Of a stretch of 64,000 nucleotides of DNA, positions 1 through 19,910 are shown one piece after another (the first letter of the stretch is position 1; each line of letters starts with the position of its first letter). Below the pieces are notes generated by a model, which worked only from the letters and a program-made list of their open reading frames with translations, was not told the DNA's origin and did no database searches. This DNA is from Planctomycetota bacterium. GTDB lineage: Bacteria > Planctomycetota > GCA-002687715 > CAIWVZ01. The translations under genes and the position numbers were made by a program. The stretch spans positions 1,789,337 to 1,853,336 of the forward strand of contig JBGANV010000001.1 of NCBI GenBank assembly GCA_044222185.1, given 5' to 3'.

Positions 1-5
1 TATAC

Positions 6-845
6 GTGCCGCGCGTCGGCGGCGGCCTGGGCCTCCCCGCGGGTTCCGTGCTCTCGCGTCTTCGCTACGTCTGCTTCACCGATTGGCGCCGACTCGCGTT
101 CGTCGTCCTGCCCGCCGGCGTCGTCACCATCCCGGCCTTGTTCCTCCATCGCCGGATGGACGCGCCGACACGCGCGCTGGCCTGGGTTTCGCTGGCGTGG
201 GTCGCGTTCTTCTACTTCCCAGGCAACTACGCGCCGCACCACTTCGCTCCGGCGATGGTCCTGCCCGTGATCGTCTACTGGCGGCTCGCGGCCGGCGCGG
301 CCACGGCTGCGGTCCGAGCCCGTCTCGCCGCCATCGGAGTGATGGGCGCGCTCGCGGGGCTGTGGCTCTGCCTTCCCGCGCACGACTCGGTGCCACAGCC
401 GTTCCGCGATGCCGGAGCCGCCGTGAGCGTGCCTGCGGGCGGGCCGCGGCTGGGGTCCGACCTCGCGCCGTTCGCCGTGCTGTCGTCCGTCGTGTCACCG
501 CCGTGGTCGGGCGCCGACCCGCATGCGACGCTCGTCGGCTCGCCGCTGCAGGTCGCGCATTACGCACGGCTCCTTGGGCCACGACCCGACGACCCGTCGT
601 GGACGTATCGGGTCCAGCGCAGCGACGCAGCCCGCGCGCCGGGGGCCGTCGTGCTCGAAGAACGGCCGCCGTGGGTGCTCCTCGCGCGGGATGCATCGGT
701 CGTCCGTCCCGGAGCGGTCGGTCACCTCGCGACGGACTTCCAGCGACCGTGGCTCGTCGTTCCGCCAGAACGGCTCGTCCGCGGAATCCTGGAGAAGCGG
801 CACGCCTACGACGTCGACATACGGGCCCTCGTTGGACGACGCTGA
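6..845 (+). CDS. Polytopic membrane protein, probably the C-terminal part of a larger GT-C-like or membrane protein. Its 5' end is likely cut by the window edge.
   Basis: The ORF opens at the window edge with GTG. Its N-terminal half has several hydrophobic helices and the rest is soluble. It is co-directional and abutting (4 nt) with the next membrane-protein ORF. Confidence 0.4.
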   Translation: MPRVGGGLGLPAGSVLSRLRYVCFTDWRRLAFVVLPAGVVTIPALFLHRRMDAPTRALAWVSLAWVAFFYFPGNYAPHHFAPAMVLPVIVYWRLAAGAATAAVRARLAAIGVMGALAGLWLCLPAHDSVPQPFRDAGAAVSVPAGGPRLGSDLAPFAVLSSVVSPPWSGADPHATLVGSPLQVAHYARLLGPRPDDPSWTYRVQRSDAARAPGAVVLEERPPWVLLARDASVVRPGAVGHLATDFQRPWLVVPPERLVRGILEKRHAYDVDIRALVGRR

Positions 846-848
846 ACC

Positions 849-1340
849 ATGACTCATCTGCGCGCTCCCCTGCTCTGGCCGGTTCTCGCTGGCGGCGTCG
901 CTGCCGCTGCGGGGTCGGTCTGGGTCGCCTGCAGTTTCACGCACAAGGCGTATGCGCTGGGCTACCACGTGCCTCTCGCGTTCCTCACGACGGCCGTCCT
1001 CGTCGATTGCATCGTCCAGGCGCGATCGACGCGCCAACTCGGGATCTTCTGGGCGGGCGCCCTCGCCGCCGGACTGATCACGGGACGGATGATCCACGAC
1101 TGGCCCTGGTCGGGGCACGGAATCCTGGGGGCGCTTTACGCCGCATCACCGCTGCGGCCGGGATGGCGGATCCTCGGGGCCGCGACGATCATTCAGTCGG
1201 CGATCACGAAGTCCGTCCGCGGAGAACGGCCGCTCGATGCCCTCTGGGGCGCATGCGTCGGCGTGGCGCTTCACCTCGTTGCGGTCGTCGTCGACCGTCG
1301 CCGCACGGCGATCATCCCGAAGACCGGCGCGAAGCCGTGA
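849..1340 (+). CDS. Small integral membrane protein (~5 TM), function unknown
   Basis: 163-aa ORF with repeated hydrophobic segments. It starts 4 nt after the previous ORF's stop. A WSGH string is present, but PAP2 motifs are not in canonical order. Confidence 0.45.
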   Translation: MTHLRAPLLWPVLAGGVAAAAGSVWVACSFTHKAYALGYHVPLAFLTTAVLVDCIVQARSTRQLGIFWAGALAAGLITGRMIHDWPWSGHGILGALYAASPLRPGWRILGAATIIQSAITKSVRGERPLDALWGACVGVALHLVAVVVDRRRTAIIPKTGAKP

Positions 1341-2337
1341 GCGCGAACTGGACGCGCACGATCACGAACGTCGCCGCGGAGTAGAAGTAATAGAGCCAAT
1401 GCACGGGGATCGCTCGGAGCATGAACCACAGCCCCCGGCGCTTCAGGAAGAACGTGTAAAGGTCGGCATTCAACGCCAGGAGAAGGACCACGAGAGTCGC
1501 CAGCACGAGTCCCCCGGAACCGGCGGGCCACGCCCACCCGAGGGCGCACGTGATCGCCAGGCAGGCCGTGGCCGCGACGAGGAGCCCGACCAGTCCCGCC
1601 GAGATGCGGTGGTGCGGTCGCAGGTTCAAGTCCGGAGGAACGGACCCGCGCTCGAGCATCAGGCGCGTCCACGGTACGGCGCGCTTGAACACGTCGACGC
1701 GAATCATCTCCACGAGCGTCCAGGCCTTCAGGTGGCAGACCTGCAGCGATGGGTCGAGCTCGATGACCATGTCGCGATCCGTCATGCGGTATCCAAGATC
1801 GATGTCCTCGACCGACGGCACGTCGAACCGCCGGGTATCGAACCCGCCGACCGACAGGAACGACGACTTGCGAACCGCGCCGCAGCCCGCCCAGAACGTC
1901 ATGGCCCGGCGGCGTGCGCCTTGGTGAATGAAGTGGTGGACGAGGTTCTTGTACTGCGCCGTGAACGTTCGCGCGTGGGGCTCCTCGTCGTACGAGCCGA
2001 AGAGCGCGTCGGGTGCGTCGGGCTGCGCGAATCGGGCCGCCACGCGGCCGATCGTGTCGCGATGGATCACGACGTCGCTGTCGATGAACAAGACGACGTC
2101 GTTGCGCGCCGTTGCCACGCCGTCGTTGCGGCCGGCGCCGGGACCGCCGCGCACGGTGCGGCGCAGGAACTCGAAGCCGTATTCCGCGACGATCGGTTCG
2201 AGGGAACGCGGCGACTCGTCATCGACGACGATGATCTGGTCCGCTCCGGGCTCGGCATCCCGTAGCGCGTCGAGCGACAACCGGAGCTGCCCCTCGTTTC
2301 CGCGTGCGGGTACGACGACCGTCACCGGAACCTTCAT
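1312..2337 (-). CDS. GT2 glycosyltransferase with C-terminal TM helices (polyprenyl-phosphate sugar transferase, ArnC/GtrB/DPM1-like)
   Basis: N-terminal KVPVTVVVPARGNEG and DD motifs typical of GT2. The C-terminal 100 aa form hydrophobic helices. Start chosen at the internal MKVPV. ATGA overlap with the upstream deacetylase gene. Confidence 0.75.
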   Translation of the reverse strand: MKVPVTVVVPARGNEGQLRLSLDALRDAEPGADQIIVVDDESPRSLEPIVAEYGFEFLRRTVRGGPGAGRNDGVATARNDVVLFIDSDVVIHRDTIGRVAARFAQPDAPDALFGSYDEEPHARTFTAQYKNLVHHFIHQGARRRAMTFWAGCGAVRKSSFLSVGGFDTRRFDVPSVEDIDLGYRMTDRDMVIELDPSLQVCHLKAWTLVEMIRVDVFKRAVPWTRLMLERGSVPPDLNLRPHHRISAGLVGLLVAATACLAITCALGWAWPAGSGGLVLATLVVLLLALNADLYTFFLKRRGLWFMLRAIPVHWLYYFYSAATFVIVRVQFALTASRRSSG

Positions 2338-3107
2338 GAGGATGCTCCGTTGGCAAGTGCGGAGCGGACGGCCCGCCCCGCACGCCGCACGGCGAGCCAG
2401 GCGCGCACCCACGAAGCATCCAGATCACCGCGATCTGCGAGGAAACCCAGGTAGAAGGCATCCAGTCGCGGAAGGCGCGCCGGTTCCATCCCGGGCCGAA
2501 CCTCGGCCAATTCCGTCGTGAAGCAGCCCTCGTAGACGCGGATCGCCTCGTTGGCGACGCGGACGTCCAACGCGCCGAACGGGTATGCAAACAGCGGCAC
2601 CGGCGCGCCGATCTCCGCTTCGATTCGTTCGCGGGATCCGCGCAGCTCGGCGACGAGTTCGTCGTCGGCGCAGTGCCGCAGGTCGACGTGGTGGCAGGCA
2701 TGGGATCCGATCTCGATCCCTCGACTTCGGAGCTGGCGGATCTCGTCCCAGGTCAGCGCCGCCTGGCGCGGGCACGCGGCGTCGCGCGGGAAGATCACCG
2801 GTCGCCCGACGAGATCCGTCGACACGAAGAGGATGGCGCCGAACCCGAGTTCGAAGAGGATCGGAGTCGCGTCCCGCAGCACGGACGCATACCCGTCGTC
2901 GAACGTGATCACGAACGACCGTTCCGGGATCGGTGTCTCCCCGCGAATGCAGCTCAGAAACGCGGCCACACTCAGCGTCGACCATCCGCGTGAAGCGAGG
3001 CGCCGCATGAGTCGTGCGAAGCGCTGAGCCGGGAACGCGACCGGTGACCGGTCGTCGGCCAACGCATGGAAGGTGAGGACGGGAACTCTCGGCTTCAGCG
3101 ACATGCC
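2334..3107 (-). CDS. NodB-family polysaccharide deacetylase (ArnD-like deformylase/deacetylase candidate)
   Basis: TFDDGY motif and H-x-x-x-H motifs (GSHACHHVDL). Start chosen at MSLKPRVPVLTFHAL. Translationally coupled to the GT2 below. Confidence 0.75.
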   Translation of the reverse strand, partial: GMSLKPRVPVLTFHALADDRSPVAFPAQRFARLMRRLASRGWSTLSVAAFLSCIRGETPIPERSFVITFDDGYASVLRDATPILFELGFGAILFVSTDLVGRPVIFPRDAACPRQAALTWDEIRQLRSRGIEIGSHACHHVDLRHCADDELVAELRGSRERIEAEIGAPVPLFAYPFGALDVRVANEAIRVYEGCFTTELAEVRPGMEPARLPRLDAFYLGFLADRGDLDASWVRAWLAVRRAGRAVRSALANGASS

Positions 3108-3339
3108 CCAGGCCCGAGAATCGGGCGCCAGACTATAGACGTCGGCGAATCGGTCACGACGCCTTGACGCAGGTTTGCGCCAGCTGCGGCCCCACGGACG
3201 GGGACGCCGTCGCAACACCGCCCCGGGGCTCGATCGTCCCGGTCCGTGACGTCCATTCCTCGTGAACCACCTCGAACTGGAGCCCGCGAGATTCGTAGAC
3301 TGCCGTCCCCATCAGCGCAGCTCTCCAAACAGGAGTTCC

Positions 3340-4134
3340 AACATGAGGTGGTCGAAGACACCCTTCTCGAACGGGATTCGGTGGTCGGTCGCGAGCGTGA
3401 TTCTCTGCGGGGCGCTCGTCGCCCAGACCCCGGTCTTGTCGCGCGTACTCCCGGAGGCCGCCTCGCCGGGAGATCTCGTCATCCTCGTGGGAACCAATCT
3501 CGCGAACACGAACGACGTCACCTTCGTGGCGGCCGTCGGCGGGTTCGCCGGGGTTCACACCATCCACCAACCGGTCGTTTCCGTCAGCGCGACGCAGGTC
3601 CGCGTGCTCATGCCGACCGTCGGCAACTTCCTCCCGCCGAACGTCCAGGGGAGCAGCCCGATCGGGTCGATCGCCGTGCGAACCGTGGGCGGTGTGACGA
3701 GCGCGCCACTCACCTTCTATTTCATGGAGCAGACGGCGGGGCGCGTACACACGGCCGGAATCGGAACGACACAGGCGAACCCGGGCCAGGGGCGCCCGGT
3801 GATCTCGTTCCCGCCCACGTCCGCTCCCATCGCCGGAAACACGGCGTCCATCATCCGCGTCGCCAACGGCACCGTGGGGCTCCAGGCGGACCTCGTGATC
3901 GGGACGCCGATCGCGACGCCCTTCATCGCGGTCGGTGACGGGCTCGTGGCCATCGACGTGCTCGGCGCGCCATTCTTCGCCGTGACGGCACCCGTTCCCG
4001 TGGATGCGCTCGGGGACGCAAGCCTCACGTTCAACATCCCACCCAGCGCCTCGGGGCTGACCGTCGCCTTGCAGTGGGCGACCTCGACGACGGGGTTCCT
4101 GTTCATCTCCAACGGGCTCGTCGTCACTCTCTGA
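3340..4134 (+). CDS. Secreted protein with probable IPT/TIG-like beta-sandwich region
   Basis: Start at MRWSKTPF with a hydrophobic signal peptide. AGGAG lies 7 nt upstream of ATG. Gly/Thr/Val-rich beta-type sequence. Confidence 0.55.
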   Translation, partial: NMRWSKTPFSNGIRWSVASVILCGALVAQTPVLSRVLPEAASPGDLVILVGTNLANTNDVTFVAAVGGFAGVHTIHQPVVSVSATQVRVLMPTVGNFLPPNVQGSSPIGSIAVRTVGGVTSAPLTFYFMEQTAGRVHTAGIGTTQANPGQGRPVISFPPTSAPIAGNTASIIRVANGTVGLQADLVIGTPIATPFIAVGDGLVAIDVLGAPFFAVTAPVPVDALGDASLTFNIPPSASGLTVALQWATSTTGFLFISNGLVVTL

Positions 4135-4161
4135 GGAGCGCCACGCCCGGCCTCGTTCCCC

Positions 4162-4551
4162 ATGACCTCGGGTGAAGCACACAGGCTCAGTGCCCGCGAA
4201 CGCCAGATGATGGACGTCGTCTGGCAGCGCGGTGAGGCCACGGCGCAGGAGATCCGCGACGCGATCCCCGAGCCACCGAGCTACTCCGCAGTCCGCGCCA
4301 CGCTGGCGATCCTCGAGCGCAAGGGACACCTGCGTCACCGGATCGATGGCGCGCGCTACATCTACATTCCCGTCGAGTCGACGACGTCGGCCGGGCGCCA
4401 GGCCTTGATGCGCGTCGTCGACACTTTCTTCGAGGGTTCGCCCGAGCGGGCCGTCGCCGCGTTGCTGAAAAAGCAGTCTGGCGCACTGGACGCGCGGGAC
4501 GTCGCGCGGTTGAAGAAGCTCATCGACCAGTCGCGCCGCAAGGGACGATGA
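4162..4551 (+). CDS. BlaI/MecI/CopY-family winged-helix transcriptional repressor
   Basis: 129 aa. The N-terminal DVVW..GEATAQEI...SYSAVRATLAILERKG pattern is typical of the penicillinase-repressor family. Its 4-nt overlap with the downstream M56 sensor gene is the classic blaI-blaR1-type pairing. Confidence 0.85.
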   Translation: MTSGEAHRLSARERQMMDVVWQRGEATAQEIRDAIPEPPSYSAVRATLAILERKGHLRHRIDGARYIYIPVESTTSAGRQALMRVVDTFFEGSPERAVAALLKKQSGALDARDVARLKKLIDQSRRKGR

Positions 4552-7606: not shown

Positions 7607-8845
7607 ATGCGTCCGCTCCGGTTTTGCATGATCACGACCTTCTACCCGCCACAGAACTTCGGCGGGGACGGGATCTTCATCCACCGGCTGAACAACGAGC
7701 TCGCGAAGGCGGGCCATCGCGTCGACGTCGTCCACTGCACGGACTCCTACCACATGCTCGGGGGCACCAACGACCGCCCGGTCGAGCATCACCCCAACGT
7801 GACGACGTTCCCGTTGGCGAGCCCGGCGGGAAGGCTCTCGCCTCTCCTGACGCAACAGACCGGCGCCCCATGGCTCAAGCGCCGCCGCATTTCCGAGGTG
7901 CTCGCGCGGGGCCACGACGTCGTCCACTTCCACAACGTCTCGCTCGTGGGTGGCCCCAAGGTCCTCCGCATGGGTTCGGGGATCAAGCTCTACACGACGC
8001 ACGAGCACTGGCTCGTGTGTCCGACTCACGTCCTGTTCCGATACAACCGCGAGCCGTGTTTCGAGAAGGACTGCCTGCGATGCATCCTCGCACACAAGCG
8101 ACCGCCGCAGCTGTGGCGCTACACGGGACTGATTCCCCGCATGCTGAAGCACGTCGACGGCTTCATCTCCCCGAGCGCGTTCACGATGCGCCGTCACGCG
8201 GAACTGAACCTGGACATGCAGGTCATCCCCTACTTTCTCCCCGAACTCGAACCCGCGGATGACGCGGCAACGGCGAAGGGACGCACGATCGTGGCCGAGC
8301 AGAAGGCCCGGCAGTTCTTCCTGTTCGTAGGCCGTCTCGAGAAGCTCAAGGGCCTGCAAGAGATCCTCCCCGTGTTCCGCAAGCGGACCGACCTGCGCCT
8401 CCTCGTCGCTGGCGAGGGCGCGTTCGGGGACGAGCTCCGCGCGCAGGCCGCGGGCCTCGACAACGTGGTCTTCCTCGGCTCACTGGATCGCCGCAACCTC
8501 CAGGTGCTCTACGAACACGCTCTCGCCGTGCTCGTTCCATCGATCTGCTTCGAGGTGCTCGGCCAGATCATCATCGAGGGATTCGCCGTGAAGACGCCCT
8601 CGATCGTCTGCCCGCTCGGCGCCCCGCCGGACATCATCCGCGAGAGCAACGGCGGGTTCGTCTACGAAGACCTCGAGGAATTCGAACGAGCGCTGGACGC
8701 CATCGCGCGGGACCCGGCCCTGAGGGCGCGGCTCGGCGAGAACGGCTTCAGGTACTTCCAGGAGCACTTCACGAGAGATGCTCACTTCAAGAAGTACTTC
8801 GGCCTCATCGATTCGATCGCGAAGCGCAAGGGGATCACGCTGTGA
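7607..8845 (+). CDS. GT4-family (GT-B fold) glycosyltransferase
   Basis: C-terminal EGFA...P...ESNGGFVYED pattern characteristic of GT1/GT4 'glycos_transf_1' domains. 412 aa. Confidence 0.8.
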   Translation: MRPLRFCMITTFYPPQNFGGDGIFIHRLNNELAKAGHRVDVVHCTDSYHMLGGTNDRPVEHHPNVTTFPLASPAGRLSPLLTQQTGAPWLKRRRISEVLARGHDVVHFHNVSLVGGPKVLRMGSGIKLYTTHEHWLVCPTHVLFRYNREPCFEKDCLRCILAHKRPPQLWRYTGLIPRMLKHVDGFISPSAFTMRRHAELNLDMQVIPYFLPELEPADDAATAKGRTIVAEQKARQFFLFVGRLEKLKGLQEILPVFRKRTDLRLLVAGEGAFGDELRAQAAGLDNVVFLGSLDRRNLQVLYEHALAVLVPSICFEVLGQIIIEGFAVKTPSIVCPLGAPPDIIRESNGGFVYEDLEEFERALDAIARDPALRARLGENGFRYFQEHFTRDAHFKKYFGLIDSIAKRKGITL

Positions 8846-10392
8846 CGGTCCTGCGAAGCCGGCTCCTCGCACCCCTGGCGTCGACCCGCGGACGCATCTT
8901 CGTGACGTGCTGGATCCTCTTCGCAGTGCACTTCGCGCCGAACGTCGTGCGTGAGCACTACCCCGCATTCGCCCTGGTCTCGAACGGGAACTACCGGCTC
9001 GACGAGTACGTCGGCTTCCACTCCGACATCTTCGTGCACCAGGGTGACGGCCACGCCTACATCAACAACAACGTCGGCGCCTCCGTCGTCGCCGCCATAC
9101 CGTTGTTGATCTTCAGGCCCGTGCTCGACGCCCTCGAAGCCCACTCCAAGCGCCTCCTGAAGGACCATCCCGCCGCCGCCGACCCGCCGTTCGTGACCAA
9201 GTATCCCAATCGCGAGAAGTTCATGCGCATCGTGCGCGAGCACGGCCTGGACCTGCGATTCGGAGCCGCGGCCGCCATCACGGCGACGCTGGTCATGGCG
9301 CCGCTTTCGGCCTTGATGGCGCTCTTCATCTTCGACCAACTCAGGCGACGCGGCGTCTCCGTGAACCGCGCGACGATCCTCTCGTTCGTCTTCGCCTTCG
9401 GGACGCCGGTCTTCTTCCGCACGGCACACCTGAACCACAACATGATGGTCATGTACGGCACGTTCGGGGCGTTCTGTGCCCTTGCAACGGCTCTCGAAGG
9501 GACGACCCCGCTGACGGATCGGCGCGCGTTCGTCGCCGGGGTCCTGTGCGGCGCCGGAACCATGTGCGACTACAGCGGCACCATCCCGACAGCCGTGTTC
9601 GGCCTGGCCGTTCTGAAGCTCTCGTGGGCCGAGGGCCTTGGGACCGCAATCCGACGTGGAGCCGTGTACTCCCTGGGCGCACTCCTCCTGATCGCCATTC
9701 AGCTCCATTCCCAGTGGGCGTGCTTCGGTTCGTGGATCCATCCGCCCCAGACCTGGATGGCCGCGGCGAACTTCACGGACCTCGGATATCGGGGGTTCGC
9801 GCCGCCGGCCCCCGATCTTCTCCTCGACAACCTCTTCGAGCACCGCTGGGGGTTGTTCGCCTACGGTCCGATCCTCGTCCTCGGGCTGTGGCCGCCGCGT
9901 CGCGCCCCGGACGCCGCTCCCGGCCTCGCGAGGCGGACGTGGGTGTTCGCCATGTCGTTTGCACTGCCGTTCATGCTGTTCTGCGCGTCGAACCAATACG
10001 CGCGGATGCAATGGAACACGGGTGTGCGCTACCTGCTGCCGCTCGTGCCGTTCCTGTTCCTCGGCGCGGCGAACGTGCTCGCGCGCCTGCCGGGCTGGCT
10101 CCTCGCGGCCATCGCCGTACCCGCCGTCCTCCACGAATGGGTCCTCTGCCTTCGGCGCGACTGCGACATCCCGGGAGATTGGGCCCAGTTCCTTCAGGCA
10201 GGTCCCCGCCTGCCGTGGCTCGACGTCCTCTCGCGATCGCCGGCAGGTCGCACGTTCGCGCCGGAGGGCTCGATGCCCGCCATGGTCGTTCTCGCACTGA
10301 CGCTGGCCGCGATCACCGGGCTGTGGTGGCTTGGCCGGAAGGCCGAGGCTCGCCGCGCCGCGACGGCTTCAACAGGAACCACAGCAGCGTGA
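8842..10392 (+). CDS. Large polytopic membrane protein, function unknown (possible polysaccharide polymerase or glycosyltransferase-associated)
   Basis: GTG start overlapping the GT4 stop (GTGA). About 12 hydrophobic helices. Located inside the polysaccharide locus. Confidence 0.55.
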   Translation: MTVLRSRLLAPLASTRGRIFVTCWILFAVHFAPNVVREHYPAFALVSNGNYRLDEYVGFHSDIFVHQGDGHAYINNNVGASVVAAIPLLIFRPVLDALEAHSKRLLKDHPAAADPPFVTKYPNREKFMRIVREHGLDLRFGAAAAITATLVMAPLSALMALFIFDQLRRRGVSVNRATILSFVFAFGTPVFFRTAHLNHNMMVMYGTFGAFCALATALEGTTPLTDRRAFVAGVLCGAGTMCDYSGTIPTAVFGLAVLKLSWAEGLGTAIRRGAVYSLGALLLIAIQLHSQWACFGSWIHPPQTWMAAANFTDLGYRGFAPPAPDLLLDNLFEHRWGLFAYGPILVLGLWPPRRAPDAAPGLARRTWVFAMSFALPFMLFCASNQYARMQWNTGVRYLLPLVPFLFLGAANVLARLPGWLLAAIAVPAVLHEWVLCLRRDCDIPGDWAQFLQAGPRLPWLDVLSRSPAGRTFAPEGSMPAMVVLALTLAAITGLWWLGRKAEARRAATASTGTTAA

Positions 10393-11629
10393 CCATGACC
10401 CAGTTGGTTGCTTCGGCGCCCACGAAGACGAGCGCCGCGCGCGGGGGATCGAGGTCACGGCCCGCGGCCGCGTAGCAGCAGATGCCGGCGGCCGTCGCCA
10501 CGAGTGCGCCGACCATCTCGCCGCGCAGCTGTCCGCGAGCGACGAGTCCGAACCGCATGTTGCCGCTGAGGAACGCGATCGCCGGCACGAGACACATGAC
10601 TTTCAGGTGACCGGCGGCAGCGGCGAAGTCCGGTCCGCCGAGGATCCCCGTAACCACTCCCGCCAGCGCGAGGACTCCGGCAATCAGTCCCACGGCGAAT
10701 CCCCCCGTGATCAGGGTCGATCGCCAGACGGCGCGCGAGAGTCGTTCGCCGCCGTCGGTTTCGTCACCGTGGGCGAGCCGGGACCACGTGGGCAGGAGGT
10801 TGAAGAACCAAAGCCACACGACGGCATGCATGGCGACGACGAGGCGGTGCGCCGCACCGAACGCGCCGATGTCGGCCGACGGGTTCGCCAGTCCGAGAGC
10901 GACCGGAGGTGCGAAGAAACGCGCGGCCCAGGCGATCGTGCTCAACGACAACGGCCACGCCTCTGCGGCGATGGCTCGCGCACCGCGCGCGGCGCCCGAG
11001 AAATCCATGGGGCCGGTGCGCAGCCGGCCGGCGATCCGATGAAACGCGACGACGATTCCACAGGCCCCGGCCTGGATGAACGGTACGCGGAGTACGTCCT
11101 GTGGTGCTCGGACGAAGAGGTTCACGCCGAGGACCATCACCGCCTGCTCCAGAAGATTGCCCAGGACGACCGTCCCCATCTCACCGCGTCCTTGGAACAG
11201 CCATTCCGTGAGGGCCGCGCGCGCCACGAGGTAGAGGGGGTAGACGAGCAGCAGACTCGTCGCGGTTGGCGAGAGGCGACCGCTCGCGGCGATCACCAGG
11301 CACGTGCCGGCGGCGACCGCGACGAGGAGCCCGCGCAGGAGCGTGATGCGGGCCACGAGCCGCGCGGCATCCGCCGGCACCCTCGCGACGGCACGCGCCC
11401 CGAACGGGCCCAGACCCGATTCGATGACGAGGGCAGCCCCGAACGTCACGTTGAATGCCACCTCGAACTGCCCGTAAACCTGGCTGCCAAGAGCTGCCGT
11501 CAAGCTGTGCAGGATGGCGTAGAACCACACCAGCTTCCCCGCCACGTCGCCCGCCACGAGGAGGACGAAACCGCGCCGAAGCCTCCGGCCGGCTGCGTTT
11601 TCCGTGGGTTGCGACGATGGATCCTGCAT
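10313..11629 (-). CDS. Wzx-like oligosaccharide flippase (MOP/polysaccharide biosynthesis protein family)
   Basis: 438 aa with ~12 TM helices. Overall architecture and context match polysaccharide-biosynthesis flippases. Its 3' end overlaps the convergent gene by 80 nt. Confidence 0.65.
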   Translation of the reverse strand: MQDPSSQPTENAAGRRLRRGFVLLVAGDVAGKLVWFYAILHSLTAALGSQVYGQFEVAFNVTFGAALVIESGLGPFGARAVARVPADAARLVARITLLRGLLVAVAAGTCLVIAASGRLSPTATSLLLVYPLYLVARAALTEWLFQGRGEMGTVVLGNLLEQAVMVLGVNLFVRAPQDVLRVPFIQAGACGIVVAFHRIAGRLRTGPMDFSGAARGARAIAAEAWPLSLSTIAWAARFFAPPVALGLANPSADIGAFGAAHRLVVAMHAVVWLWFFNLLPTWSRLAHGDETDGGERLSRAVWRSTLITGGFAVGLIAGVLALAGVVTGILGGPDFAAAAGHLKVMCLVPAIAFLSGNMRFGLVARGQLRGEMVGALVATAAGICCYAAAGRDLDPPRAALVFVGAEATNWVMVTLLWFLLKPSRRGEPRPSGQATTAR

Positions 11630-11836
11630 GGGGCGGGAGGATAACCGGGACCGCGCGCACCGGCCCCGTCATGGCCCGGCCGGGTTGTTCCGCGGGGTCG
11701 TTCCCGATTACGCTCTTCGGGTCACCCGGGCACGCAGGTGAAGCGATGCTGCGCCGCAGCGTCACGTGCCCGCGACTCGATCCGAAACGGATTGGGCCCC
11801 GGACTTCCAGTTCCGCGAGCCCCCCGGAGATTCAGC

Positions 11837-13117
11837 ATGAAGCGTCTGATCCTCCTTTGCGCCCTCGTCACGCCGATCACGTTCGGCCAGATCGTCTACG
11901 CGCCGAACACGTGCGCCGCGCCCTATCAGATCTTCGACGGCATCAATCCCCAGCCCGCCGTCAGCGGTTACGTGTTCTCGAACGCGGCCTCGCTCCCTGG
12001 CAACGAACCGGGCTTCAGCTCGGCGAGCTGCGGCTTCGGCGGCAACCCCGGGTCCCGTGACGTCTTCTTCACCTACACGGCGACGGCGTCGGGGACCATC
12101 GCGTTCCAGACCTGCACGCCGCCGGGCTTCACCGCGGGGACGTTGTCCAACACGCAAGTGACCGTCCACGACACGTCATGCCCGGGCACGCTCACGAACC
12201 TCGCCTGCAACGACGACTCCTGCGGACTCCTGTCGTCCGCGAGCCTGTCCGTCGTGTCGGGGACGACGTACTTCGTGCGCGTCGCGGGCTACGTCGGCGC
12301 CACGGGAACGTTCTACCTGACCGTCACGCCCGCCCAGCCGCCACCCGCGAACGACGCGTGTGCGAACGCGATTCCGATCACGGACGGTCTGACCACGAGC
12401 ACCTGCGTGGGTGCCGCCACGGAAGCCGGGCTCCCCGCCGCCTGCGCGACGTTCACCTCGGACGTCTGGTTCTCGTACACGAACCCCTCGTCCACCTGCC
12501 CGGCGAGCGTGACGATCGACATGTGCACCGTCACGACGAATGCCTTCGACTCCGTGCTCGTCGTGTGGACCGGCACCTGTGGGAGCCTCACGCAGCTGGC
12601 CTGCAACGATGACTTCTGCGCAGCATCAGGGGCGCCGTCGCACGTCGTCTTCGCGCTCACGCCCGGCCAGACGGTGCTGATCTCGGTGGGGGCCTGGTCG
12701 AATTCCCAGGCGTACCCCTTCGCGATGAACGTGACGCACCACACCGCCGTGACCCAGGTCGTCGGAACGAGCTGCCCGAACTCGGGAATCTCGTTCTCGA
12801 CCACGCTTCCCGTGCTGGGGCAGACGTCGACGATCTCGCTCACGGGGGCCACGCCGTCCGTGTTCGGGTCGATGTTCGTGAGCCTCCCGACGCCGGCCTA
12901 CACGCCCATCGGAGCGTGCAACGTCTACGTCGACGTCTTCACCATGTTCGAGCTGCTGCAGTTCGCCACGGACACGGCCGGCGCGCTGACGCTGACGGTC
13001 CCGCTCCCGAACGACCCGCTCCTCGAGTGCGCGAGCGTCCACCTCCAGTGCGTCGATTTCGGCGGCAGCGCCGGGTTCGAGCTCTCGAACGGCGTGCTCG
13101 TGACCTTGGGCTTCTGA
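11837..13117 (+). CDS. Secreted protein with two tandem Cys-containing repeat domains (conserved LACNDD-x-C motif)
   Basis: Signal peptide MKRLILLCALVTPITFGQ. Internal duplication of ~150 aa, each copy ending in a LACNDDSC/LACNDDFC motif followed by a short beta-rich segment. Confidence 0.55.
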   Translation: MKRLILLCALVTPITFGQIVYAPNTCAAPYQIFDGINPQPAVSGYVFSNAASLPGNEPGFSSASCGFGGNPGSRDVFFTYTATASGTIAFQTCTPPGFTAGTLSNTQVTVHDTSCPGTLTNLACNDDSCGLLSSASLSVVSGTTYFVRVAGYVGATGTFYLTVTPAQPPPANDACANAIPITDGLTTSTCVGAATEAGLPAACATFTSDVWFSYTNPSSTCPASVTIDMCTVTTNAFDSVLVVWTGTCGSLTQLACNDDFCAASGAPSHVVFALTPGQTVLISVGAWSNSQAYPFAMNVTHHTAVTQVVGTSCPNSGISFSTTLPVLGQTSTISLTGATPSVFGSMFVSLPTPAYTPIGACNVYVDVFTMFELLQFATDTAGALTLTVPLPNDPLLECASVHLQCVDFGGSAGFELSNGVLVTLGF

Positions 13118-14084: not shown

Positions 14085-14119
14085 GCCCGCTACAATCCCC
14101 GGCCGATCAAAGAGATGCG

Positions 14120-15028
14120 ATGAGTGCAGCGAAGTCGGAAGAGGGCCGGCCTCACCCGGAGGTCACCGTCGTGATCCCTGCCTACAACGAGCGGGACGGG
14201 ATTGCGCGGACGGTCCGCGAGATCAACTCCGTCCTTTCGGGGGCGGGGATCGCGTTCGAGGTCATCGTCGTCGACGACGGCTCGACCGACGGCACCCCCG
14301 AGGCCGCGGAGGCCGAGGCCTGTCGCGTGATCCGCGCCCACCGGAACTCGGGGTACGGGGCGTCCCTGAAGCGTGGGATCGCGGCGGCGCATTCGGACCG
14401 CATCGCGATCATCGACGCCGACGGCACCTACCCGGCGACGGCGTTGCCCGAACTCGTGCGGCGCTCGCGCACCGTCGACATGGTCGTCGGCGCCCGGACG
14501 GGGCAGAACGTCAACATCCCGCTCCAGCGTCGACCCGCGAAGGCGTTCATCACGTGGCTCGCGGGCTACCTCTGCGGGCGGCACATCCCCGATCTGAACT
14601 CCGGGCTGCGCATCTTCCGTCGCAAGCACGCGCTGCGGTTCGCGCGCATCCTGCCCGCCGGCTTCTCCTTCACGACGACGATCACGCTCGCGCTGCTCTG
14701 CAACGACTACGCCGTCGACTACGTGAGCATCGATTATCACAAGCGGATCGGGACGTCGAAGATCCGCGCACGCCACGCCTACGACTTCACGCTCCTGATC
14801 CTCCGGTGCATCGTCCTCTTCAATCCGCTGAAGGTCTTCCTGCCCGTCGGCGCCGTGCTCGCGATCCTCGGGTTCGCGAAGTTCATCTACGACTGCATGA
14901 AGGAGAATCTCAGCGAGAGCGCCGTCATGTGCATCCTCGGCGCCATCATCGTCTGGTGCGTGGGCCTGCTCGCCGACCAGAACACGCGCCTCGGGCTGGA
15001 CCCCCGCGCGTGGGACGAAGAGGACTGA
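14120..15028 (+). CDS. Polyprenyl-phosphate sugar synthase-type GT2 (GtrB/ArnC/DPM1-like) with C-terminal TM helices
   Basis: VTVVIPAYNE, VVDDGSTDGT and IIDADGTYP motifs. Two C-terminal TM helices. Start chosen at MSAAKSEE after the upstream stop. Confidence 0.8.
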   Translation: MSAAKSEEGRPHPEVTVVIPAYNERDGIARTVREINSVLSGAGIAFEVIVVDDGSTDGTPEAAEAEACRVIRAHRNSGYGASLKRGIAAAHSDRIAIIDADGTYPATALPELVRRSRTVDMVVGARTGQNVNIPLQRRPAKAFITWLAGYLCGRHIPDLNSGLRIFRRKHALRFARILPAGFSFTTTITLALLCNDYAVDYVSIDYHKRIGTSKIRARHAYDFTLLILRCIVLFNPLKVFLPVGAVLAILGFAKFIYDCMKENLSESAVMCILGAIIVWCVGLLADQNTRLGLDPRAWDEED

Positions 15029-17449: not shown

Positions 17450-18430
17450 ATGAAGATCCTGATCACCGGCGGTGCCGGATTCGTAGGCTCGCATCTCTGC
17501 GAAACGCTCGTCGCACGCGGGCACGAACTCGTGGTCATCGACGACCTCTCGACGGGTCGGATCGAGAACATCGCCCACCTGGAGAAGAGCGGGAAGGTCC
17601 GCATCGTCGTCGACAGCGTCGCCCGCGAATCGCTCGTCGAGGAACTGGTGCGCGCGACTGACAAGGTTTTCCACCTCGCCGCCGCCGTCGGCGTCAGACT
17701 GATCCTCGAACAGCCGACTCACACGATCGAGACGAACATCGCGGGAACGGAGGTCGTCCTCCGCTACGCGTCGCGCTATCGCCGGCCCGTGCTGATCACT
17801 TCCACGTCCGAGGTCTACGGAAAGAGCGAGCACGTCCCCTTCCGCGAGGAGGACGACGTGCTGCTCGGGCCGACGAACCGCCAACGCTGGGCGTATGCGG
17901 CATCGAAGATGGTCGACGAGTTTCTCGCGCTCGCGTACTGGCAGGAAAAGCGCCTCCCGGTCGTGATCGCACGGCTTTTCAACACCGTGGGCCCGCGCCA
18001 GACCGGCCGCTACGGCATGGTCATTCCGCGGCTCGCGGCCCAGGCCATCGCTGGCGAGCCCCTCACCGTTTACGGCGACGGCGAGCAGAGCCGCTGCTTT
18101 GGCTCCGTGCGCGACGTCGTCGAGGGTCTCGCTCGACTCATGGACTGCGAAGGCGCCATCGGCGAGGTCGTGAACCTGGGCAACCCCCAGGAAGTGACGA
18201 TCAACGAGCTCGCACGGTTGATCATCGAGATCGCAGGCAGCCGCTCCGAAGTCCGGCACATCCCGTACGACCAGGCCTTCGCGGCCGGATTCGAGGACAT
18301 GCGGCGGCGCATTCCCGACATCACCAAGGCCCGGCGACTGATCGGATTCGAGCCGAAGGACGACCTGCGAAGCATCATCACGGCCGTGGTCGCCGATCAG
18401 CGCAAGCGCGGTCGCAACCATGACGGCTGA
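17450..18430 (+). CDS. UDP-glucuronate decarboxylase (UDP-xylose synthase, UXS-type extended SDR)
   Basis: ILITGGAGFVGSHL, STSEVYG, ARLFNTVGPR, LTVYGDGEQSRCF and VNLGNPQE align closely with eukaryotic and bacterial UXS enzymes. Confidence 0.8.
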   Translation: MKILITGGAGFVGSHLCETLVARGHELVVIDDLSTGRIENIAHLEKSGKVRIVVDSVARESLVEELVRATDKVFHLAAAVGVRLILEQPTHTIETNIAGTEVVLRYASRYRRPVLITSTSEVYGKSEHVPFREEDDVLLGPTNRQRWAYAASKMVDEFLALAYWQEKRLPVVIARLFNTVGPRQTGRYGMVIPRLAAQAIAGEPLTVYGDGEQSRCFGSVRDVVEGLARLMDCEGAIGEVVNLGNPQEVTINELARLIIEIAGSRSEVRHIPYDQAFAAGFEDMRRRIPDITKARRLIGFEPKDDLRSIITAVVADQRKRGRNHDG

Positions 18431-19910
18431 GACGCCGCCCGCCGCGCCGGCCGCGAACGCTCACACGCCGTTGCGGGACGCGCGGGTCCGCGCGGTGCTC
18501 GCGGACGGGGGCTGGGCATTGGCCATCATCGTCGGCGCGGCGCTCGCGCTGAGGATCTTCCAGCTCGGCACGCAACTTTGGCTCGATGAAGTGCTCATGC
18601 TCGGCGAGCTCGTACGCAAGCCGTTCGGCGAGATGATCACGAGCTATCGCACGGACAACCAGCACCCGCTGTACACGGCCCTCGCCTGGGTTTCGGTCCG
18701 GATGTTCGGCGAAGCGGCGTGGGCTCTCCGCCTGCCTGCGGCCCTCTTTGGGACCGCAGCCGTCGCCGCGTCGTTCGTGTTCGTCAGGCGCGTCGCCGAC
18801 CGAGGCATCGCGCTGCTGGTCGCCGCCGTGATGGCGGTCTGGTACCACCAGATCTGGTTCAGCCAGAACGCCCGCGCGTACACGGCGCTCCTCTTCTTCG
18901 CGCTGCTGTCGGTGGGCCGCTGGCGCGATCTCTGGCGTGGGGATCGGGGCGCCCTCCCCTGGTACGCGGCGTGGACGGCTCTCGCCGCGTACTCGCACCT
19001 GACGGGGGCGTTCCTGGCCGTCGGCGCCTTGCTCGCATGGGTCGTCGGCCGCGTGCGAGCGAGAACCGGGTGGCTGCCGCTGGCCGGCATCGTCCTCGCG
19101 GGCGCGGGCGCGCTCGCGCTGCACGGCCCCATGCTCGGCGAGATGTGGCATTTCTTCGCCGGGCGGCCGGACCGCGTCGCCAAGGCTTCCGAGTGGAAGA
19201 GCCCGCTGTGGACCCTCACGACCCTCGTGCAGGGACTCGGCGCGCGGTCACTCGCCCTGGCAGCCGTTCCCGGACTCATCGCGGTCGTGGCACTTCTGCA
19301 CGGGATGCGCCGCGTGGCGCGGCGTGATCCCGGGACGGTGCTCGCCATGATCCTTCCCGGCGTCGTCGGCGCCGCCGTCACGCTCGGGCTCGGTCGGCAC
19401 CTGTGGCCTCGGTTCTTCGTGTTCCAATCGACGTTCGTCCTCTGGCTGGGGCTCGAAGGCGTGAGGCCAGCATTCGAAGCGATCGTCGGGAGGATCGCGG
19501 GCGCCGGTGCCCGTGCGTCGTGGATCAAGACGACAGCGGCGACACTCGTCGTCGTCGCGGGCCTGGTCACCGCGCGGAACGTCTACGAGACCAAGCAGGA
19601 CTTCGAGAGCCCGCGCGAGTACGTGCGCTCCCACCGTGCCCCCGACGAACCCGTGTTCACGGCGGGGCTCGCAACCTGGCCGTATCAGTACCTCTACGCG
19701 CCCGAGTTCGAGCCTGTCCAAGACGCCGCCGAGTTCGAACCCGCGCTCGGTCGGCCTTCACGCGCGTGGCTGATCTACGCCTCCGAGATCTTCATGAAGG
19801 CGAATCGGCCGGCCGTGTGGGAGGTCGTCGCATCCCGCTTCGAGGTCGTGCAGCGCTGGCCCAGCTCGCTTGGCGAAGTCGTGCTGTGCCGCGAGAAGTC
19901 CGAGCGATGA
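18420..19910 (+). CDS. GT-C fold glycosyltransferase of the ArnT/PMT (GT39/GT83) type
   Basis: 496 aa, ~11 TM helices. N-terminal loop with a DE-containing motif (WLDEVLM) after the first TM, as in ArnT/PMT proteins. 11-nt overlap with the UXS gene. Confidence 0.65.
   Translation: MTAETPPAAPAANAHTPLRDARVRAVLADGGWALAIIVGAALALRIFQLGTQLWLDEVLMLGELVRKPFGEMITSYRTDNQHPLYTALAWVSVRMFGEAAWALRLPAALFGTAAVAASFVFVRRVADRGIALLVAAVMAVWYHQIWFSQNARAYTALLFFALLSVGRWRDLWRGDRGALPWYAAWTALAAYSHLTGAFLAVGALLAWVVGRVRARTGWLPLAGIVLAGAGALALHGPMLGEMWHFFAGRPDRVAKASEWKSPLWTLTTLVQGLGARSLALAAVPGLIAVVALLHGMRRVARRDPGTVLAMILPGVVGAAVTLGLGRHLWPRFFVFQSTFVLWLGLEGVRPAFEAIVGRIAGAGARASWIKTTAATLVVVAGLVTARNVYETKQDFESPREYVRSHRAPDEPVFTAGLATWPYQYLYAPEFEPVQDAAEFEPALGRPSRAWLIYASEIFMKANRPAVWEVVASRFEVVQRWPSSLGEVVLCREKSER

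Follow-up and report, generated by a model that had tools for sequence, protein, structure and literature searches.

A translationally coupled glycosyltransferase–deacetylase gene pair beside a GT-C-like membrane protein in a Planctomycetota genome: a possible amino-sugar relay without Arn homologues

Gene organisation of the locus

The window, by which we mean the whole 64,000-nucleotide stretch of Planctomycetota DNA analysed here, opens with two pairs of genes that converge on each other. On the minus strand lies a gene (1312..2337, 341 aa) for a membrane-anchored inverting glycosyltransferase of family GT2 with a "minimal synthase-like" fold, and its match to PF00535 (1.4e-21), together with a hydrophobic and helical C-terminal third, bears out an earlier note on this DNA that had described a GT2 with C-terminal transmembrane helices. 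The upstream gene of this pair (2334..3104, 256 aa) encodes a CE4/NodB-family de-N-acetylase of the PgaB N-domain type (PF01522, 1.5e-20); the NodB family had been recognised correctly, while the end of the gene, placed at 3107, was 3 nt too far, the ATG being at 3104-3102. The two genes are translationally coupled, as had been proposed, with the ATG of the GT2 (2337-2335) overlapping the TGA of the deacetylase (2336-2334) as ATGA, and this coupling is kept in relatives at 59-67% identity, the same 4-nt overlap being found in the related loci L081, L086, and L088. Given that the GT2 orthologues are 333-346 aa long, the start at 2337 is favoured over a GTG at 2412.

Both genes on the other side are on the plus strand and are therefore convergent with the GT2, not divergent from it as had been thought. 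The first (3..845) is indeed a truncated polytopic membrane protein, namely the C-terminal ~280 aa of the 640-aa protein P0143, whose N-terminal 360 aa are encoded upstream of the window on the same 2.26-Mb contig. The second (849..1340, 163 aa) begins 3 nt past the stop of the first and encodes a small, polytopic membrane protein whose family is uncharacterised; its 3' end overlaps that of the GT2 gene by 29 nt (1312-1340), and an overlap of 62 nt is kept in relatives. All four genes have conserved homologues and are thus not chance open reading frames in GC-rich DNA. Promoter and terminator scans of positions 1-4400 gave no signal above the shuffled background.

Further along the window there is a GT4 glycosyltransferase with a Cys-rich insertion (7607..8845, plus strand; PF00534 and PF13439), translationally coupled to a 516-aa polytopic membrane protein (8842..10392, plus strand), and then a candidate Wzx-type (Polysacc_synt) flippase on the minus strand (10313..11629; PF01943, 1.1e-13). 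A separate ArnC-like GT2 gene (14117-15028) sits 12 kb from our pair in another cluster, as a genuine donor-making module. Two ArnT-like GT-C genes had been claimed elsewhere in the window: the gene at 18420-19910 does match PMT_2, while the 516-aa protein shows only a weak, sub-threshold match (7.8e-08) to the NCBIfam LA_3751/LA_3752 putative glycosyltransferase family and may be a glycosyltransferase. Two secreted proteins (3262-4134 and 11738-13117) were considered as possible relatives of each other and this was rejected, their weak C-terminal likeness not being significant (E 0.56).

The glycosyltransferase and its coupled deacetylase

According to its structural model, the GT2 combines a GT-A domain with an interface helix, after which come about three C-terminal helices (241-265, 270-289, and 291-338), and there is no N-terminal transmembrane helix; hydropathy gives two clear segments within 244-299. 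So few helices fall short of a complete membrane channel for moving a polymer, which takes six or more. The invariant residues are D39-D40, D86xD88, and E177-D178 (the ED motif), and the interface helix carries R219-A-x-P-W223 (RxxPW) at the position of the canonical QxxRW. An ED motif together with R-x-x-P-W at this position is typical of enzymes with a sugar acceptor. Structurally, the protein matches hyaluronan and cellulose synthases best (286-303 of the 341 residues aligned), and this likeness to processive membrane synthases includes the interface and transmembrane helices, so that the overall fold with its membrane part is nearer to the synthases than to DPMS, GtrB, or ArnC. In profile alignments, 194 columns of the GT2 matched PgaC, the ED motif among them (hhalign E 3.7e-18), in contrast to ArnC, where only the 102 columns of the nucleotide-binding half aligned.

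The earlier identification of this GT2 as ArnC did not survive these comparisons. It had no match to the NCBIfam ArnC model (PRK10714) at E<=0.01 and only E=17 in BLASTP against E. coli ArnC, whereas the positive control, the true ArnC-like gene at 14117-15028, matched PRK10714 at 9.8e-19 and E. coli ArnC at 9e-23. The GT2 does not fall within the DPMS/GtrB/ArnC clade, to which, to our knowledge, every characterised polyprenyl-phosphate monosaccharide synthase belongs. In the literature we found no characterised enzyme of its own clade. The family is large, with 1,924 significant matches among the candidates scored, in at least 10 phyla, and the best match in the genome-collection scan was 48% identical. 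A PMT_2-type GT-C gene lies within 7 kb of a GT2-family gene in 31 of 80 loci across phyla, and directly adjacent in about 13 of them; in most other lineages neither a GT-C nor a deacetylase but a PRK07208 FAD oxidoreductase is the commonest neighbour.

The deacetylase, in turn, resembles the N-terminal domain of E. coli PgaB (30% identity over 137 aa, E 3e-14), and its NCBIfam and PDB matches are to this same domain and to Bacillus polysaccharide deacetylases. In an alignment of the family with E. coli PgaB added, H13, D69-D70, and H135 are invariant, as is the whole T67-G71 segment (TFDDG motif), and H139 is nearly so; we take these to correspond to the PgaB catalytic acid, base/metal pair, and metal-binding histidines. 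There is no second domain in the 256 aa, and the C-terminal GH153 domain of PgaB is missing. The earlier note had counted a signal peptide as a sign against an ArnD-like enzyme acting at the cytoplasmic face; neither a signal peptide nor an N-terminal transmembrane segment is present in five deacetylase orthologues, so the enzyme most likely acts on the cytoplasmic side, and its substrate must be reachable from there. ArnD itself is another matter, given that BLASTP against E. coli ArnD gave E=0.16 and that neither NCBIfam nor PDB returned an ArnD match. A NodB/CE4 domain with its metal and catalytic residues and no export signal is common to the CE4 superfamily and not specific to ArnD.

All this likeness to PgaC and PgaB brings in the possibility of a synthase system like PgaCD/PgaB, IcaAD/IcaB, or NodC/NodB. 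In it the GT2 would processively build an oligo- or polysaccharide of beta-linked HexNAc, with the small membrane protein completing the synthase like PgaD or IcaD; the CE4 enzyme would partly de-N-acetylate the chain, and the large membrane proteins would export or modify it. The structural matches, the PgaC alignment, the PgaB-like deacetylase, and a small membrane protein that is always adjacent all speak for such a system. Glycoside hydrolases go with many synthase operons, and a GH113-like hydrolase does lie beside the pair in L081-L083, L086, L088, and L089; these are, however, closely syntenic genomes, and the hydrolase is absent from the window. NodB is a precedent for a CE4 enzyme that works in the cytoplasm on what a GT2 has made, and NodC and NodB likewise combine in one operon a synthase-class membrane GT2 with a small cytoplasmic NodB-family deacetylase. 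Our matches to the NCBIfam NodC (0.0046) and NodB (0.0013) models are, however, far below cutoffs; there is no nodA-like acyltransferase, and the GT2 has neither the N-terminal transmembrane helix nor the canonical QxxRW. Compared with the PNAG and Ica systems, the GT2 has about three membrane helices instead of five or more, the deacetylase is predicted to be cytoplasmic whereas PgaB and IcaB are exported, and neither a PgaA-like porin nor a TPR or c-di-GMP module was observed. A synthase would also leave the GT-C-fold partner described below without a role, and we consider this explanation unlikely.

A further known system, PcManGT of Pyrobaculum calidifontis (PDB 6YV7), is a "minimal cellulose-synthase-like" GT2 with only 18% identity to ours; it is archaeal, has GDP-mannose as its proposed donor, and lacks a deacetylase partner. 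Going by a title cited in PMC12595478 and PMC8993221, it was proposed to act in N-glycan assembly, and its function is itself debated (PMC8993221).

Membrane partners and conserved neighbourhood

The full-length orthologue from L083, used as the query, recovered the 640-aa family and with it the full-length protein to which the window fragment belongs. The family comprises about 400 sequence clusters and has no Pfam model: 40 members gave no match to Pfam, and there was none in NCBIfam. Its structural model, which is of low confidence and was built from 7 sequences, has a GT-C-like fold with ArnT as the second-best structural match, in agreement with the earlier suggestion that the upstream part might belong to a GT-C transferase, and D162 (motif SSDGxE), a residue encoded outside the window, is invariant in the 40 members. 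On this model, the protein looks like a GT-C-fold enzyme belonging to no described GT-C sequence family. GT-C enzymes draw on lipid-phosphate-linked donors. In 80 genome loci, the GT2 had no member of the 640-aa family nearby, and a metagenome scan with the family found only one locus, which was truncated. The small membrane protein has orthologues of 173-175 aa in the same position in L083, L086, and L088 (33-38% identity), with the invariant motifs YH.P and D-W-P-x-S-G-H and without any Pfam, NCBIfam, or PDB match. Its D-x3-S-G-H motif led us to consider a PAP2-type phosphatase, which was rejected in view of the lack of a supporting Pfam or PDB profile.

With these partners in hand, a true ArnC/ArnD system (or its LgmA/LgmC or FlmF2/NaxD counterpart) modifying lipid A can be judged. 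The gene roles are compatible, lpxA, lpxC-fabZ, lpxD, and bamA are present in the same window, and ArnT ranks high among the structural matches of the neighbouring membrane protein. On the other side, besides the failed ArnC and ArnD comparisons and the synthase-like GT2 fold, the 640-aa family gave an hhalign probability of 0.6% against E. coli ArnT, no arnA- or arnB-like genes lie beside the pair, and the ArnC-like gene of the window belongs to another cluster. As orthology this explanation is refuted, and we hold it to be highly improbable; contrary to what the earlier note had supposed, nothing ties the module to lipid A.

The arrangement itself is conserved. A unit of a ~570-aa protein, the ~640-aa GT-C-like protein, and the ~170-aa protein, converging on the GT2 and the deacetylase, recurs in four separately retrieved loci with different flanks, in relatives that are probably Planctomycetota. 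The 570-aa upstream protein of these relatives is similar neither to the 640-aa family nor to the 516-aa protein, and no other GT2 was found nearby in L083, L086, or L088.

The GT4 at 7607-8845 is a probable partner of the module. In the P0006 locus a GT4 orthologue is directly divergent from the deacetylase, and GT4 orthologues (42-61% identity) occur near a target-family GT2 in about 19 of the 80 genome loci, most of them also with a deacetylase homologue. Orthologues of the 516-aa protein (36-38% identity) lie beside a GT2 and a deacetylase in L026 and L057; the P0006 locus has a 516-aa protein without a Pfam match in the same place, corresponding by position and length only. The Wzx-type gene is syntenic with the GT4 and 516-aa pair, and the P0006 locus also has a PF01943 gene in that position.

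This syntenic block raises the alternative of a lipid-linked oligosaccharide or lipoglycan primer, similar to HfsG/HfsH of the Caulobacter holdfast or following the logic of GPI or PIM assembly. In such a pathway, the GT4 and GT2 would add sugars in the cytoplasm to a lipid-linked acceptor, the CE4 enzyme would de-N-acetylate one HexNAc, Wzx would flip the product, and GT-C enzymes would extend or transfer it using donors from the ArnC-like GT2 at 14117-15028; a genuine donor-making module is indeed present in the window. HfsG and HfsH are a GT2 and a cytoplasmic CE4 enzyme acting on a lipid-linked intermediate in a Wzx-dependent pathway; likewise, our module combines a GT2 with a CE4 enzyme and has a Wzx-like gene nearby, and it gives weak NCBIfam matches to HfsG (3.2e-05) and HfsH (4.4e-07). 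These scores, however, are far below the equivalog cutoffs (23 vs 500 bits and 30 vs 400), and HfsG is not described with the membrane domain of our GT2. The co-occurrence of the GT4 with the GT2 family and deacetylase across phyla, and the role proposed for PcManGT, also fit a primer, as does L081, where the pair adjoins a DPMS-like GT2 and a TMEM260-type GT-C, which hints at a role of the pair in producing an acceptor or a primer and not the donor. Against it, the window ORFs scanned against Pfam, a scan outside which several smaller ORFs fell, included no initiating phosphoglycosyltransferase of the WbaP/WecA type, the five-gene units of L083, L086, and L088 have no GT4 or Wzx nearby, and in the window a 4.3-kb insertion separates the GT4 block from the pair. 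We regard a primer pathway as rather doubtful.

A possible amino-sugar relay

The explanation that we tentatively prefer, while giving it somewhat less than an even chance, is that a lipid-linked HexNAc is made, de-N-acetylated at the cytoplasmic face, and passed to a GT-C enzyme, in an Arn-like manner and with non-orthologous parts. The precedent is the Arn pathway, with a GT2, then a deacylase, then a flippase, and then a GT-C enzyme (PMC4402001); the Arn (ArnC, ArnD, ArnE/F, ArnT), Lgm, and FlmF2/NaxD/FlmK systems encode together these same roles of a membrane GT2, a cytoplasmic-face NodB-fold deacylase, one or more small membrane proteins, and a GT-C (PMC4402001). In contrast, our module has no detectable homology to ArnC, ArnD, or ArnT, its GT2 fold is synthase-like instead of DPMS-like, and no arnA or arnB sugar-nucleotide tailoring genes adjoin the pair. 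Thus, the functional logic proposed in the earlier note holds up in part, through the signal-less deacetylase, the GT-C-like partner, the conserved unit, and the PMT_2 neighbours of the wider GT2 family, and the Arn homology has to be given up; the module looks like a new version of the bacterial amino-sugar envelope machinery, unrelated to the Arn proteins.

In this relay, the catalytic domain of the GT2 would lie in the cytoplasm, and its membrane helices, about three in number, would form a "half tunnel". The enzyme would take a HexNAc from a nucleotide sugar and load it onto a phosphorylated lipid embedded in the membrane; the candidates for this lipid are polyprenyl phosphate and a primer that is either polyprenyl-(P)P-linked or a glycerolipid. 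The coupled, signal-less CE4 enzyme would then strip the N-acetyl group at the cytoplasmic face, leaving a free amine, and the product would cross the membrane with the help of the 163-aa protein or the Wzx-like protein as candidates. At the outer face, the 640-aa GT-C-fold protein might use it as a donor or extend it as an acceptor, with lipid A, peptidoglycan, a glycan, and a protein all conceivable as the final acceptor.

We count in favour of this relay the conserved ATGA, the PgaB-like residues without a signal peptide, the convergent GT-C-fold gene, the recurring unit, and the PMT_2 neighbours. We count against it the position of the GT2 outside the DPMS/GtrB/ArnC clade, its ED and RxxPW motifs, and PRK07208 as the commonest neighbour elsewhere, and further the L081 context and a GT-C assignment drawn from a low-confidence, seven-sequence model.

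A bolder form of the relay, which we put forward as speculative and on balance improbable, is that the half-tunnel GT2 stands for a second class of lipid-phosphate amino-sugar synthases that arose independently, and that with its cytoplasmic PgaB-type deacetylase it feeds an unrecognised GT-C family for cationic envelope decoration in Planctomycetota-like bacteria. A relay would bear on the envelope chemistry of Planctomycetota, which is poorly known. The architecture of a GT2 with transmembrane helices plus a NodB enzyme is, for relay and synthase alike, not by itself diagnostic of ArnC/ArnD. If the synthase explanation is the true one, this would be an ordinary, albeit undescribed, exopolysaccharide locus. 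If the relay is true, unrelated enzyme lineages would have given rise more than once to lipid-linked amino-sugar decoration, as in polymyxin-resistance systems such as Arn; a GT2 clade that is large, widespread, and so far uncharacterised would gain a testable function, and a membrane-protein family of some 400 clusters without a Pfam model would gain a GT-C assignment.

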